DNA of 64,000 nt from contig CAVOKF010000007.1 of NCBI GenBank assembly GCA_963696385.1, positions 480,001 through 544,000 of the forward strand. The letters run 5' to 3'. Made by a program: the position numbers. Below, piece by piece: positions 39,001-45,000 of this stretch. Position 1 is the first letter of the stretch. Each line of letters opens with the position of its first letter. Origin of the DNA: an uncultured delta proteobacterium. Its GTDB lineage: Bacteria > Myxococcota_A > Polyangia > Polyangiales > Polyangiaceae.

Positions 39001-42000
39001 TGGCGGCGGAGCTCGCGAGCCAGGCGACGCCCCTGCAGATCGAACAGGCCATCGACGACTTCCTGAAGATCGGCGGGATTCTCGACGGCGGTCTCCAGCA
39101 GCAGGTGCAGTTCGACGTCGCCACGCTCGAGCGCGCGATCGGGCGCACACTCACGCCGGCGCAACGCCAGGAGGTGGAGACCGCGCAACTGAAGTCCTAC
39201 CGCTTCACGTTCCTCGTTTCGGGCCTCGAGCAGCCGAATTTCACGCAAGCCATCGCGGACCTGAGTCCCTCCGGCTTGGCCCGGATCGCGCAAGTGGCGC
39301 GGACGCTGTCGTGAACGGGTCCGCCCTGACGCCAAACGATGCGGCGTGGATCCCCTCCCGACACCGACGATCATGAAGGGTTGCGAGGCGCTTTCCCCAC
39401 CCGCCCCTCGGGTGGGGGAAGTGTGCATTCAGGTCTTGGCGGCCGAAGCGAAAAGGGCCACCGCGTCCTGCAAGCTGCGAACGGCGACGGCCAGACGACC
39501 TTCGGCCTCTCGCGTCAGCGCGACCCCAGTGTCTTGCACCGTGATCTCCGCGTCGTTGACGACGAGCGCCGGCAGCGCGCGCGCGCGGAAGAAGCGAAAG
39601 AGAGCCTGAAAGGCAACGCCAACCTCGGCGCCGTGCGAGTCGAGCTTCGTCGTGGCGATACCCAAGGCAGGCCGGTCGACGAGCGCGTCGGGCGGGATCA
39701 GATCGATCAAGGCCTTCAGGCCCGCCGAGTAGGTGGCCTTGTAGACCGGCGTCGAAACAACGATGGCGGCGGCACTCCGGACGACGGACAGAAATGCCGC
39801 GACCGACGGCGCTTCCACGCGGCCCCACAGCAAATCGGCCGCATCGAAGTCGCTCAGCGAAAACAATCGGGTCGACAGGCCGCGACCTTCCAGTTGCCGG
39901 GCGACTTGCTGCGCCACCCGGGTCGACTTCGACGTGGCCGACGGACTGCCCGCGAGAAAAACGACTTGTTGACTCATGCTCCCTGTTCCCTTTCCCTGGT
40001 GATCGTTCGGCTTGCCCCCGATCGCGGCCCCGGATCGACCAGCCACGATCCGAAGCGGCGGTCAAAATGCAGCAGCGGCGACCCCGCGGAAACGGCGGCC
40101 GCCAGCACCTCGGCGACGAAAATGGTGTGGTCGCCACCGTCGTGAAGCGCGTGGCGCCGGCACTCCAAGGCAGCCAGCGATCCCTCGATGAGAGGGACTC
40201 CGTAGCCGGTGCCGATCGAAAGCGGGATGCCGGCAAATCGGTCGATGCCCGATCGAGCGAACTGCGCGGCGATGGGCGCCTGCCGCTCGTCGAGAATGCT
40301 CACGCCGACATGCTCGCAGGTGAGGATGCGATCGTACGCGCTCGCCTTCTTTCCGACGCAGGCAAGAACGAGCGGGGGGCAAAGCGACAGCGCGCTGAAG
40401 GCCGTGGCGGTGAACCCGACGAGGCCGCTCGGATGCCGGGCCGCCACGATGGTGACCCCGGAGGCGAAACGCGCGAGCGCGTCGCGAAATGCATCGGCAG
40501 CCAACGGCACGTTCATCGAAAAGGCTCCTCGTCCCGCGCGTCCTTTCGGCCGGCGCCGCTTGGTGCTTGGCTGCATGCATCGCGCCAAGGCACCGGGAGC
40601 CAGGAGTGACCCGCCGCCGGGCCAAGAGCCCGAGGCTCGATGGCCGCGCGCTTCGCAACCGACTCCCGCCGAAGCCGCGATCTCAACCGAACCGAATCTT
40701 ACGTCTCTTATACTGGACGTGCATCTACTATTATAGTAGTCGTTCAGCCCGTGAGACCATGACGCTTCTGCATCTGCCCCGATCCGATGCCCCGCCGTCC
40801 CGTGCGCGAGCTCTCGTCTTCGAAGACCCCCTCTCGCACGAATTACTGAGAAGTCTCGAGCAAATCGCTCCGACCGACGCGACGGTTCTCATCACCGGTG
40901 AGACGGGCACCGGCAAGGAGATCATCGCCCGCCGGCTGCACGAGCGAAGCATGCGCGCGAAGGCTCCCTTCGTCGCAGTCAACTGCGGGGCCTTGGCCCC
41001 ATCGCTCATCGAGAGTGAGCTCTTCGGACACGAAAAGGCGGCGTTCACCGGCGCTCTCACGGCCAAGGCCGGTTGGTTCGAGGCGGCGGGTGGCGGCACG
41101 CTGTTCCTCGACGAGATCGCCGATCTGCCCCTTGCGGCGCAGGTGAAACTCCTGCGTGTCCTGCAGGAGCGGGAAATCGTCCGCATCGGTGCGCGGCGGC
41201 CGGTCGCCATCGACGTCCGTCTCATCGCCGCGACGAACGCCAACCTCGCGCAGGCCGTGACCGAGGGCCGGTTCCGAGAGGACCTCTTTTACCGGCTGCA
41301 CGTCGCCCACTTGACGCTGGCTCCGCTCCGGGACCGGTCCGGCGACATCCTTCCGCTCGCCAAGTATTTCATCGCAACCTACGCGGCCCGACTCGGGCTC
41401 GATGCCGTCCCGCTTACCCCCGAGGCGCAGGCCAAGCTTTTGGCCCATCGATGGTCGGGCAACATCCGCGAACTGGAGAATGCGATGCACCACGCCCTGC
41501 TCGTGCGAAGCGAGGGATGCATCGACGCCGACGATCTGCGTCTCATCGAGGAGGGGCCCATCCGCCCGTCGCCTTCGAGCCCTCCGCCGCCCAAAGACGA
41601 CGCGCCGCGTTCGCGCCCGGGCGACCCGCTCGGGGCGATGGAAGCGGCTCTCGTCGCGTGGTTCGAGCGCGAGCCGCCGAGCCTGCTGCAGCAAATCGAA
41701 GAGGCGGTCTTTCGCAAAGCCTACGAATTTTGCGAACACAACCAGCTGCGTACCGCGCGACTTCTCGGCACGAGTCGAAACATCGTCCGCGCGAGGCTCA
41801 TCCATCATGGCTTGCTCGCCTCGAGTCCCGAGCCTCAGACGTCCGCCGCGCCGGGCGAAAGCCCTCCTGCATGCTCTCCGAAAGCCATCCGCGTGCGCAT
41901 CGGTCACCAGCCGTTCGGCGTGCTGTCTTTGCTCAAAGCGACGCGAGCGCTGGAGGATGCATTTGCCGTGCACGGGGCCGAGGTCGAATGGACACGCTGC

Positions 42001-45000
42001 GCCACCGGTATGCAAGTGGTCGACGGACTCGCCGTCGGTGCCATGGATCTCGGCGTGGTCGGCGAGGCGCCTCCGGTCTTCGCACAAGCCGCCTATGCGC
42101 CGCTCGTGTATCTGGCCGCCGAGCCGCCGGCTCCCGAGGGCGAGGGGATCCTGGTCTTGGACGCATCGCCCATCCGCAAGGTCTCGGACCTACGCGGCAA
42201 GACCATTGCCGTCCCACGCGGCTCGAACGCCATGTACTTCGTGCTTCGAGCCCTCGAGGAATGCCGCTTGAACCCCGGCGACGTGGATATCCGTCCGCTC
42301 GCGCCCTCGGAGGGCCACCGCGCGCTGTTGCGGTCGGAGGTGGATGCCTGGGCGATTTGGAATCCGCTCCTGGCGTTCGTCCGGCAGACGACGCCCGTTC
42401 GCCAGATCCGCGACGCCCGCGGCCTCGCCAGCAACCGAGCGTTTTACGTCGCGCGCTTGGCCTTTGCGGATGCTCATCCCGAATGGGTCGACGCGTTTCT
42501 CGGACAAGTGGCCGCCTTGGGCCGGTGGGCCATGGAAAACCGGCGGGCCGCAGCGGACGCGCTTGCGCCGGAGACCGACGTCCCCGCCGACGCGATCGAG
42601 ACGGCGCTCTCGGCGACCCGTTTCGATGTCGGTCCGATCCGAGCGGAGGTCGTGGCCTCTCAACAGCGCATCGCCGACACGTTTTGTCGACTGGGCCTCA
42701 TCGCGCGCCCTGTTCGGGTGGGCGATGCGGTCTGGGCTCCCCCGGGAGCACAACGGCGCTCGGCGTAGCGGGGACGTGGCCGGGCGCGTAGCGTTGCGCC
42801 AGCATTTCACCGAACGGTCCGGTCAGGTTGTGCTCGAAACCGTTGGCGGGCGTTTCAAGCGGAAGCCTCGGGAAGAGAAGCTCGGCCACCCGATACGCCT
42901 CCTCGAGGTGCGGATAGCCGGAGAGGATGAAGCTGTCGACTCCCGCATCCGCGTATTCGAGTATCCGCGCCGCGACCGTGTCCGGGTCCCCCACGAGCGC
43001 CGTGCCGGCGCCACCCCGAGCGAGACCCACGCCGGCCCACAGGTTGGGGCTCACCTCCAGCTTGTCGCGGCGCCCTCCGTGAAGGGCCACCATACGACGC
43101 TGCCCCTCCGACTCGAAGTGCGCGAACGCATGCTGCGCCGCCGCGATCGCAGCGTCGTCGAGGCGGCTGATGAGAGCCTCGGCCGCCGACCAGGCCTCCG
43201 AGTCGCTTCGTCGGACAATCACGTGCACGCGGAGCCCAAAACGCAAGGTGCGCCCAAGCTTCGCCGCGCGCTCGCGAACATCCGCGATCTTCGCGGCCAC
43301 CGCTCGGGGGGGCTCGCCCCAGCTCAAGTACACGTCGACCTCGCGCGCCGCGACGTCGTGGCCCGCATCCGACGAGCCCCCGATGTAGATCGGCGGGTGC
43401 GGGCGCTGCACCGGCGGATAGAGAATTTTGGCGCCGCGCACCGAAATGTGTCGACCTTCGAAGTCGACGGTTTCGCCACTCAGAACCCGTTTGAAAATCT
43501 GCAAGAACTCCGAGGTCGCCACGTAACGCTCATCGCGTCGCAGGTAGACGCCATCGCCCTCGGACTCGGCCGGATCGCCTCCCGTGACCACGTTGAGTAA
43601 GACGCGCCCCCGGGAGATGCGATCGAGCGATGCCGTCATGCGCGCGGCGAGGGTCGGTGAAAGGATGCCAGGGCGCAGGGCGACGAGAAACCGAAGCCGA
43701 TCGGTTACGGGCACCATGGCGGAGGCCACCACCCACGCGTCTTCGCACGAGCGTCCGGTGGGCAAAAGAACTCCGTAGAACCCGAGTGCGTCCGCCGCCT
43801 GCGCGATCTGCCGCAGATACGGTAGGTCGACGCCCCGAGCCCCGTCGGCGCTTCCGAGAAAGGCACCGTCGCCGTGGGTGGGCAGAAACCAAAATATGTC
43901 CATACTTGGTGCCCTGCCCGCAAATCTCGGGCCCGGCAGGCGACCCTCGAAGAGGGTGTGGAAGCGGATTCGGGACTGCTGGCCACGCAGCCGTGCTCCA
44001 GCAGTGCCGTTTGCTGCGCAGCAGGTGTCCGGGCGTGGGACGCGACATCAGCCCGTGTCGTGGCGGACAGGATCTTCGAAAGCCGTCCGGCGCTCCAAAG
44101 CCCGGGATTGTCCGCGATCCGACCGACCGCGCTCGCACCCGGCATGTGGCCTGCACGCGGCCCGGTATGACCGATCTGCTCTCTATGGCCGAGGGCCTGG
44201 CCCGGACCTTCGCGGCGACCGCGATCGAACGCGACCGCGCCGGAGGGACCCCGAAGCGCGAGCGCGATGCCCTGCGCGCAAGCGATCTCTTGGCCATGTC
44301 CATTCCCGTCCGCCTCGGCGGCAGCGGGGCGGACTGGGCCACGACGCTCCGCGCCGTGCGCGCGATTTCGCGCGCGGACGGATCGCTCGGACACGTTTTC
44401 GGCTTCCAGCACCTCTTGCTTGCAACCGTTCGCCTGTTCGGCACGCCCGCCCAGTTCGATGCCCTGGCGCGCGACACGGTGAAACAGCGGTGGTTCTGGG
44501 GTAACGCCCTCAACCCCCTCGACACGCGAGCCAGGCTCGTGCAACGCGGAGACGAGTTCGCGATCTCGGGCACGAAGAGCTTTTGCTCCGGTGCCAGGGA
44601 TGCCGACATGCTCGTCGTGTCGGCGACCGATGCCGTCAACGGTCGGCTCATCGTGGCGGTCGTGCCCGCTTCGCGCCCCGGAATCACCGCTCATGACGAT
44701 TGGGACAATATGGGGCAACGCCAAACCGATAGCGGCACCGTCGTCTTCGACAACGCCCGCGTGCTCGAGAGCGAGATCCTCGCGCATCCCGGGCCGCTCG
44801 GCAGCCCGCTCGCCTCGCTTCGGCCTCTCGTCGCCCAGCTCACCCTCGTCAACGTCTATATCGGGCTTGCGGAGGGTGCCTTCGAGGCCGCCCGGACGAT
44901 CACCCGCGAGCGAGGCAAAGGTTGGTTTGCGAGTGGGGTCGAACGGATCGTCGACGATCCTTACGTCCTGGCCTCGTTCGGTGACCTGTATTGCGAGCTC

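Follow-up and report, generated by a model that had tools for sequence, protein, structure and literature searches.

Sulfonates and sulfate esters make up the majority of the sulfur available in aerobic soils (PMC3839906), and the SfnR-type activators which serve organosulfur use lack a built-in sensor. In one gene of an uncultured Polyangiaceae bacterium, such an activator continues into a domain resembling SsuA. Here we analyse the 64-kb stretch of DNA that carries it, hereafter the window. On sequence grounds, the SsuA tail probably lets this myxobacterial activator sense organosulfur compounds inside the cell. The fusion family allows two questions to be put to a one-protein system, whether substrate is sensed directly and whether gating of an AAA+ activator is possible from the C-terminal side. 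If ligand gating proves true, it would also be a ready part for sulfonate biosensors.

The gene is a single reading frame with no internal stops in its translation (Table 1). Its start at 40759 agrees with the starts of homologues; an in-frame ATG at 40489 was rejected on the same comparison. Pfam finds Sigma54_activat (residues 21–185), AAA_lid (191–261) and NMT1 (402–585), with a PF00158 score of 230 bits, and no HTH_8. In the NCBIfam scan, NtrC/FlbD models span residues 15–348; no curated SfnR model is among the 25 of 32 families listed. Residues 290–349 form a four-helix bundle in the predicted structure. TIGR01728 matches residues 379–660 at 179.8 bits, passing its cut-off of 163.5 as the first-pass annotation had stated, and the narrower SsuA model PRK11553 is not passed (184.4 against 299). 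These data confirm that the protein is an SfnR-clade sigma-54 activator with a whole SsuA domain behind its helix-turn-helix (HTH). The AAA+ match begins at residue 21 and the N-terminal PAS, V4R, GAF or ACT sensor of group 2–3 activators is absent. Walker A and B, the arginine fingers and sensor II are present, and invariant in 103 of 103 aligned rows. Loop 1, on which the first-pass annotation is silent, reads AAFTGA, a variant of GAFTGA shared by 12 of the 103 rows (90 have G); the change at its first glycine is catalogued only as putatively functional in PMC3162934. The protein is predicted to act in ATP-dependent activation of sigma-54 transcription. The single-chain model (pTM 0.52) places the domains relative to each other without confidence, and complex prediction between residues 1–356 and 374–664 scored 0.00 in two runs, which argues neither for nor against contact.

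Table 1. Features of the fusion gene and its surroundings (positions within the window)
Feature	Position	Strand	Basis or remark
Fusion gene, 669 aa: SfnR-type sigma-54 activator with C-terminal SsuA-type domain	40759..42768	+	translation, profiles, structure model
AAA+ domain, ~aa 16-262; Walker A, Walker B, arginine fingers, sensor II intact; loop 1 AAFTGA	40804..41544	+	
Helix-turn-helix bundle, SfnR type, ~aa 290-352	41626..41814	+	model and activator comparison
SsuA-type binding domain, aa 377-660; pocket Q384, G417, G435, N490, W534; no signal peptide	41887..42738	+	
Palindromic operator YGTCYR-n-TATA-n-YRGACR on the fusion's own promoter	40702..40719	.	22.8 bits, third best genome site
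Flavin reductase, divergent from fusion; sigma-54-like site 40572-40587	39974..40516	-	match below equivalog cut-off
SsuE-like FMN reductase	39429..39977	-	below equivalog cut-off
AurF-like di-iron oxygenase; sigma-54-like site 38288-38303; weak enhancer copies 38195, 38232	38397..39314	+	weak Pfam match, under cut-off
ssuD alkanesulfonate monooxygenase, convergent with fusion; sigma-54-like site 43919-43934	42698..43903	-	above cut-off
MsuC/DszC-like flavin monooxygenase; sigma-54-like site 44140-44155	44167..45327	+	below equivalog cut-off
sfnG dimethylsulfone monooxygenase; sigma-54-like site 45445-45460	45511..46617	+	above cut-off
sfnB sulfur-acquisition oxidoreductase; sigma-54-like site 48124-48139	46860..48101	-	above cut-off
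Weak enhancer copy between ssuD and msuC-like gene	43976..43993	.	matrix scan, 9.4 bits
Weak enhancer copy upstream of sfnG	45350..45367	.	matrix scan, 8.3 bits
Enhancer copy; centre 104 bases from sfnB promoter	48234..48251	.	matrix scan, 12.9 bits

The sulfur-gene neighbourhood reported in the first-pass annotation is indeed present, ssuD, sfnG and sfnB with matches above their cut-offs and the msuC-like, SsuE-like and flavin reductase genes with matches below equivalog level. No BPD_transp_1 permease match was found within the window. A candidate enhancer described here, TGCTGC-N4-GCAGCA, lies upstream of the sigma-54 promoters of the sulfur genes. Its copies in the window are weak (8.3–12.9 bits), against 20–23 bits in locus L001 and in a second cluster of this genome, and the matrix finds 460 genome sites at 10 bits or more. 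The matrix scan found no copy at the flavin reductase gene. When the matrix was built without the window and L001, the site before msuE of Pseudomonas aeruginosa ranked first of 8 matches in its locus (L094). Of 30 enhancer-bearing regions, 22 have a sigma-54-like site downstream, and the genome carries rpoN. The promoter score is rough and loose (952 genome sites at 18 or more), so that sigma-54-like sites count only together with position and enhancer. The cognate regulator of the operator on the fusion promoter is predicted to be an XRE-cupin protein.

The C-terminal domain has kept the sulfonate pocket. When the sulfonate pocket of Xanthomonas citri SsuA (PMC3839906, section 8) is mapped on the fusion, Q384 is kept in 127 of 141 fused domains, G417 and G435 in all 141 and W534 in 137. 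Where X. citri has Ser141, Asn stands in 133 of 141; this is not decay, since 86 of 87 exported homologues share the Asn. The model superposes on the liganded SsuA structure 3ksj with an rmsd of 1.6 over 287 columns, and dN/dS of the domain is 0.03–0.31 in 18 of 18 pairs, indicating purifying selection. Together this supports a functional ligand pocket, and the domain is a putative alkanesulfonate binder. Pocket-lining residues do vary between fusion subfamilies. In a quick tree, 71 fused domains and one orphan are split from 42 exported ones by a branch with 98% SH-aLRT support: the fused SsuA domains are one clade with a single origin. The fusions have relaxed sixteen positions that exported SsuA conserves, whereas nine, several of them charged, are conserved in the fusions only; 8 of 141 fused but none of 87 exported domains lack a helical hairpin (591–624). 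This contrast is partly lineage history, the exported rows being more alike (mean identity 56%, against 51% for fused rows). The cytoplasmic location previously assigned to the protein agrees with the lack of a signal peptide and of a hydrophobic linker (linker hydrophobicity in fusions is at most 1.43, the median of signal regions 2.45). That the fusion is a sulfonate sensor, as was also claimed, we infer from sequence.

The architecture, pocket conservation, selection, single origin and motifs are directly supported, and the following mechanism would accommodate them. In a single event in Polyangia, an SfnR-clade activator would have acquired an ssuA gene without the signal-peptide part and put it to use as a cytoplasmic ligand gate. 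The motifs suggest that under sulfur starvation a repressor, probably the XRE-cupin protein, leaves the operator of the fusion promoter. The HTH would then occupy TGCTGC-N4-GCAGCA and the AAA+ ring open the sigma-54 promoters of ssuD, msuC, sfnG, sfnB and partner genes, a step for which sequence support is good. The empty SsuA domain may dampen the activator until an intracellular alkanesulfonate or sulfinate binds, for instance methanesulfonate produced by SfnG and MsuC, so that full flavin monooxygenase output would require both a shortage of sulfur and the presence of substrate. We lean, by a little, towards such an inhibitory gate, with ligand and direction both inferred. Tolerated losses of the domain and the CmpC precedent discussed below fit an inhibitory role. 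In favour of this mechanism, 29 of the 35 complete loci lie close to genes for sulfur monooxygenases, TauD or ABC components of the SsuA family; six Sorangium loci, with only an FMN reductase in the vicinity and ribBA in two of them, speak against it. Repeated domain loss, the weak enhancer copies in the window and the AAFTGA loop count against an indispensable sensor.

The fusion is complete in 35 of 80 loci. Among 200 genomes of the family sample, 11 have an SsuA-like match: five full fusions, one fusion cut by a contig end, one orphan fused-type domain and four with stand-alone matches only. No fusion was found among 400 genomes of the phylum sample (alignment A1, four candidates scored per genome). 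Of 120 listed homologues, 109 (counting the query's own entry) have both Sigma54 and SsuA-type Pfam matches, in line with the majority asserted earlier, although the listing was drawn with residues 300–669 as query and so favours fusions. By hand count, about 70 of these 109 bear binding-protein names. The frequent misnaming pointed out before holds for Sorangium, Polyangiaceae and JGI records; the three Pendulispora records listed are instead named sigma-54 regulators. The annotation of these activator–SsuA fusions, commonly called binding proteins, is corrected here. Two of five listed RNA runs gave small word shares (0.09 and 0.05). Their contigs, being mostly 90–95% alike, derive from related organisms. 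Among the 16 pieces listed of 96, no piece bridges HTH and SsuA, and these data are left out of the argument.

Fused and unfused forms are intermixed on the activator tree (FastTree only), which forces at least 13 changes, some unfused database proteins being possibly contig fragments. The fusion is the sole in-frame SfnR-type activator in this assembly; the row of the second activator is partly out of frame, so that gene is left out of the clean losses. One locus (L068) has the same neighbours as another (L014) but is missing the SsuA domain. This and the mixing on the tree indicate that the domain is dispensable. It has been lost repeatedly, and having been shed so often it can be at most a modulator. 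In cultured Sorangium strains, fused and unfused paralogues stand side by side and provide built-in controls.

An alternative is that no allosteric sensing takes place: the activator would behave as a plain SfnR whose only control is its own transcription, with the domain serving as protein-contact module, stabiliser or local ligand store. In its favour, the same neighbours and enhancer still occur with relatives that are unfused, the nine fusion-only positions could form a partner surface, and linker length ranges from 4 to 96 residues. Were contact the sole role, however, the buried pocket need not be kept across a mean identity of about 51%. One subfamily whose ATPase motifs are dead (K to R in Walker A; loop 1, the Walker B glutamate and the arginine finger lost) retains HTH and SsuA under selection, which is easiest explained by control of DNA binding or assembly by the domain. 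We regard the absence of sensing as unlikely, though the strongest of the alternatives considered. The dead-ATPase sister has an enhancer copy immediately 5' of its own start codon. A broader reading, for which we would give rather less than even chances, is that the fusion is a sixth sigma-54 activator layout, gated behind its HTH by a captured transport receptor and hence a direct intracellular organosulfonate sensor; that the sister acts at the same sites as a repressor or anti-activator under sulfonate control; and that both stand under an XRE-cupin operator which replaces CysB control in Polyangia.

Only marginally less plausible than the absence of sensing, and likewise improbable, is a feedback brake: a ligand signalling that sulfur is sufficient (sulfate, sulfite, thiosulfate or excess sulfonate) would be bound by the domain, and the ligand-bound activator would be inactive. 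Repeated loss suits any negative module, and the helix-dipole anion pocket is of the type found in nitrate, phosphate and molybdate binders (PMC3839906). CysB/Cbl is absent among the top five NCBIfam matches of 7 LysR proteins scanned (8 loci). A common signal would also suit the differing catabolic contexts of the fusions. Against this, alkanesulfonate binders are the nearest matches among both solved structures and families; W534, the residue by which SsuA holds the alkane chain, is nearly always retained; starvation control is apparently already supplied by the separate operator; and the subfamily-specific pocket linings suit different organic ligands.

It is very improbable that a chance read-through or an assembly error joined sfnR to ssuA and that the SsuA part works for an ABC importer: although sfnR directly adjoins ssuA in one locus (L080) and no other domain above the TIGR01728 cut-off was found in this genome, the fusion is one open frame in the 35 complete loci, six of them in finished Sorangium chromosomes, it is devoid of export features, and in L023–L025 it accompanies a separate exported ssuA-ssuC-ssuB set.

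Among known systems, the fusion resembles SfnR, SfnR1 and SfnR2 of Pseudomonas, which also have no N-terminal sensor. It is 55% (residues 3–348, close to the 54% first estimated) and 60% (15–367) identical to two activators beside msuE-ssuD-msuC in a P. aeruginosa plasmid record, the target genes are of the same kind and the enhancer motif before msuE is common to both. SfnR-clade proteins typically end after the HTH, at about 355–376 aa (354–376 aa in the Pseudomonas relatives), whereas the fusion has an extra 290-aa SsuA domain; its subclade has the AAFTGA loop, and its own promoter carries the palindromic operator. Endoh is said to have placed P. putida SfnR under CysB regulation in 2003. 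Exported SsuA proteins (PDB 2x26, 3e4r, 3ksj) share fold and pocket with the fusion domain but have a signal peptide and ssuC/ssuB partners, while the fused domain is tied to a regulator, with its relaxed positions and sometimes missing hairpin.

NasS is built like a binding protein. One protein in locus L060, which we take to be NasS-like, has no real sequence match to the SsuA domain (E 0.037). In NasS-NasT the nitrate sensor frees a transcription regulator upon ligand binding (PMC6759348), in a two-protein system acting by RNA antitermination, unlike the single-chain fusion. XylR, NorR and NifA, in groups 2–3 of the ligand-binding activators, have an N-terminal sensor (PMC7175178, Table 1). 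The claim that the sensor lies at the opposite end from that of known activators was too broad, as LevR-type (type II) activators also carry regulatory domains C-terminal to AAA+ (PMC3162934). Their HTH is N-terminal, however, and their signal is PTS phosphorylation rather than small-molecule binding; Pfam and NCBIfam scans found neither an N-terminal HTH nor C-terminal PTS-related domains in the fusion. Our literature search retrieved no paper on the fusion and no sensor behind an HTH in print; additional file 2 of PMC3162934, a list of annotated activators, could include a Sorangium member. The best model for how the fusion may work is CmpC/NrtC, where a binding-protein-like domain likewise lies C-terminal to a cytoplasmic ATPase and is auto-inhibitory until nitrate is bound (PMC13287603), although that ATPase is an ABC transporter subunit and not an AAA+ transcription activator. 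The principle is already known from NasS and CmpC; what is unusual here, and what stands of the earlier claim, is that the ligand-binding domain comes after a C-terminal HTH.

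The first-pass annotation had placed a sigma-54 activator and a whole SsuA domain in one protein, and this stands: the gene is a single frame, the product passes the TIGR01728 cut-off (179.8 against 163.5), and there are many two-domain homologues. Its PRK11553 score (184.4) does not reach that cut-off (299). Behind the activator AAA+ domain (Pfam, residues 21-185; lid, 191-261) come a helical bundle (about 290-350), a linker modelled with low confidence and an entire SsuA-type domain (379-660). In the AlphaFold model (mean pLDDT 87, pTM 0.52) the two parts were matched separately, the AAA+ part to activator AAA+ domains and the SsuA part to liganded Xanthomonas citri SsuA (3ksj; rmsd 1.6, 287 columns). 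Walker A, Walker B, both arginine fingers and sensor II are intact. Loop 1 reads AAFTGA, its first position being A in 12 of 103 aligned rows and G in 90; PMC3162934 calls this G to A change putatively functional.

Coordinates of the fusion gene and of other features in the window, its genome (G000, contigs by C number) and compared loci (L numbers)
Feature	Location	Strand	Remark
Fusion gene	window 40759-42768	+	single frame, 669 aa
AurF-like di-iron protein gene	window 38397-39314		sigma-54-like promoter, weak enhancer
GC-rich stretch, short repeats	window 36374-37447		indels relative to L001
AAA ATPase gene, then PD-(D/E)XK nuclease-FtsK fusion	window 27748-32732		
SWIM-SNF2 helicase	window 48454-51741		
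AbiEii-like nucleotidyltransferase	window 53112-54068		
Other SfnR-type gene	L081:9424-10698; G000:C8 ~869400-870700		unfused; assembly has a frameshift between AAA+ and HTH
Second sulfur cluster	G000:C6:116192-125662 and ~C6:126600-128000		ssuD-msuC-sfnG copy, LIV-type ABC set, sfnB
Strong second-operator copies	G000:C7:119668, C2:11804, C1:364312, C8:770497		
Orphan fused-type SsuA domain	L007:9818-10828; also in L096		truncated at both ends

Upstream of the fusion lie divergent flavin reductase and SsuE-like genes and, farther out, the AurF-like gene; downstream are ssuD, an msuC-like gene, sfnG and sfnB. SfnG, MsuC and MsuD convert dimethylsulfone to methanesulfinate, methanesulfonate and sulfite (PMC8234197). 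The genome has rpoN, and its 14 TIGR01728 matches include no second domain above the cut-off besides the fusion's own. AurF-like genes also adjoin SfnR-type genes in three compared loci (L001, L019, L077), and the protein is possibly a sulfur-starvation oxygenase. A minus-strand ORF in the GC-rich stretch has no Pfam or NCBIfam match, and the ATPase and nuclease-FtsK genes may form a defence or mobile module.

Motif searches of 41 fusion-locus and 45 other-locus upstream regions returned an identical palindrome, TGCTGC-N4-GCAGCA. With a matrix of 35 sites, window and L001 excluded, the site upstream of Pseudomonas aeruginosa msuE ranks first of eight matches in its locus (19.9 bits). A sigma-54-like site lies downstream of this enhancer in 22 of 30 enhancer-bearing regions, at distances clustering at 49-50, 69-73, 80-83 and 92 bases. 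Window copies before ssuD/msuC, sfnG, sfnB and the AurF-like gene score 8.3-12.9 bits and sites elsewhere in the window reach 16.2 bits, so these copies rest on position more than on score. The top four of 59 hits in a joint enhancer-plus-promoter genome scan include the second sfnG copy, the divergent promoters of a broken paralogue and the window sfnB. This paralogue, the sole other SfnR-type gene of the genome, has a 6-residue gap in its HTH; it has strong enhancers in common with a divergently oriented gene for a TonB-dependent receptor. Enhancers of the second cluster are also strong (20.2 and 23.5 bits). Its ssuD is interrupted by a repeated element. The cluster as a whole lies among many multi-copy repeats; it matches the window copy at about 92%, yet L001 at 99.94% over 9471 bases, as might follow from recent between-species transfer or strain mixing in the assembly.

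The fusion's own promoter carries a different palindrome. Among 29 fusion genes examined, 25 have it in front of them with a score of at least 15 bits; the matrix was trained on most of these, but the held-out window site scores 22.8 bits. Of the genome's 22 top-scoring sites, 13 (fusion counted) fall within 1 kb of pre-identified sulfur or XRE genes, against a background of 1.2%. Since XRE-cupin genes lie next to several of the sites and turn up again in related loci, an XRE-cupin protein is proposed as the binder. CysB/Cbl was absent from the top five matches of each of the seven LysR proteins scanned. Genes behind the four operator copies in the table presumably resemble YeeE/YedE sulfur transporters, a beta-carbonic-anhydrase-like protein and a 1-Cys peroxiredoxin.

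The linkers between activator and SsuA domain are not hydrophobic. In X. citri SsuA (PMC3839906) the sulfonate is held by residues that correspond to Q384, G417, G435 and N490 of the fusion, retained in 127, 141, 141 and 133 of 141 fused domains (two of 143 fusions, with matches too short, are omitted); the alkane-chain residue, W534, is kept in 137. N490 takes the place of a Ser in the X. citri pocket, and 86 of the 87 exported homologues have this Asn too. Once thinned to 80% identity, the two sets (84 fused, 34 exported) have 35 conserved positions in common; a further 16 are conserved in exported and nine in fused proteins only, and residues 591-624 are missing in 8 of 141 fused versus none of 87 exported domains. 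In exported SsuA the positions relaxed in fusions may help the protein dock to its permease. The fused domain thus has the look of a binder that works in the cytoplasm rather than of a transporter component. Its dN/dS is 0.03-0.31 in all 18 pairs, which were hand-picked, several near saturation, and not independent.

Four fusions (L017, L020, L026, L037) have lost the ATPase signatures (Walker A K to R, Walker B E to A, no GAFTGA, no second arginine finger), with recognition helix and SsuA domain retained under purifying selection. All four carry an enhancer copy (16.4-21.4 bits) immediately before their own start, as do none of 25 other fusions examined, and their genomes also encode active fusions. 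These features fit a ligand-controlled repressor and argue that the SsuA domain would act through DNA binding or assembly. As W534 is replaced in all four, their ligand may differ. Sister to them are five unfused SfnR relatives (L047, L050, L059, L064, L071) in which Walker A and loop 1 are changed. These lie beside rrf2 and ribBA, and four of them also have a gene for a family 2A encapsulin nearby. Further fusion subfamilies, at nine loci (L027, L028, L030-L034, L038, L041), adjoin an AprA-like FAD oxidoreductase and an SsuA-family ABC set, with a 4Fe-4S ferredoxin and a HEAT-repeat protein in seven; the genes are all preceded by strong enhancers and the pocket is altered (Q384H or N490Q, E436 mostly D). 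Such loci perhaps represent an undescribed route of sulfonate use.

In a quick, midpoint-rooted tree of 114 domains (71 of the 141 fused, 43 others), fused domains and the L007 orphan are set apart from the rest by a branch with 98% support. The orphans, near which no activator was found, are probably remnants. A tree of 119 activator parts intermingles fused with unfused forms and forces at least 13 changes. Fragments may account for a share of the unfused database proteins, but L068 has neighbours like those of L014 and lacks the SsuA domain, and a Sorangium activator (L044) ends shortly after that domain begins. The trees show one gain and many losses, and the mixing and both these cases indicate that the domain is dispensable for activator persistence. 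Since the parent SfnR type is sensorless and loss is tolerated, the domain is more likely a negative module than a required positive one. The reading we favour, as somewhat more likely than not, is that the empty domain dampens the activator and that sulfonate or sulfinate binding would release it. The sequences show the layout, gene neighbourhood, spread, pocket conservation and tree pattern of the fusion and the motifs, while ligand, direction of control, contact surface and the upper regulator's identity are inferred. Two other readings are unlikely, to about the same degree: a brake in which an anion signalling sulfur sufficiency binds the domain, and a domain without allosteric role.

The fusion is real and old. 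Both domains occur in 109 of the 120 homologues listed (query's own entry counted; list drawn with query residues 300-669). Of 141 places confirmed in genome contigs, 80 are listed: 35 with a complete in-frame fusion, three with fusions cut by contig ends, one with an orphan domain, the remainder with unfused activators or stand-alone SsuA. An artefact is extremely improbable. Titles of the fusion records mostly name Polyangiaceae, Polyangiales, Myxococcales or Sorangium; the labels Proteobacteria and Cellulomonas on a few bins may reflect binning error. Distribution is patchy: 200 genomes from the family gave five full fusions, and none was found in a shallow search of 400 phylum genomes. Sulfur monooxygenase, TauD or SsuA-family ABC genes lie near the fusion in 29 of 35 loci; near the six Sorangium fusions there are flavin-supply genes alone.

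No published account of the fusion was found in the literature covered, mostly without subscription papers and without supplements. The activator schemes covered from PMC3162934 and PMC7175178 include no sensor behind a C-terminal HTH, and the former mentions some 136 Pfam architectures outside this coverage; LevR-type proteins, in the former, do have C-terminal regulatory domains. The earlier claim of a sensor at the end opposite to that in known activators thus holds for its place behind the HTH but is too broad for C-terminal regulation in general. The fusion belongs neither to the SsuA transport proteins nor to the ligand-binding activator groups, whose sensors are N-terminal. The regulatory domain of CmpC, as described in PMC13287603, offers a working likeness for its SsuA domain, and the protein may be viewed as CmpC-like regulation grafted on SfnR.
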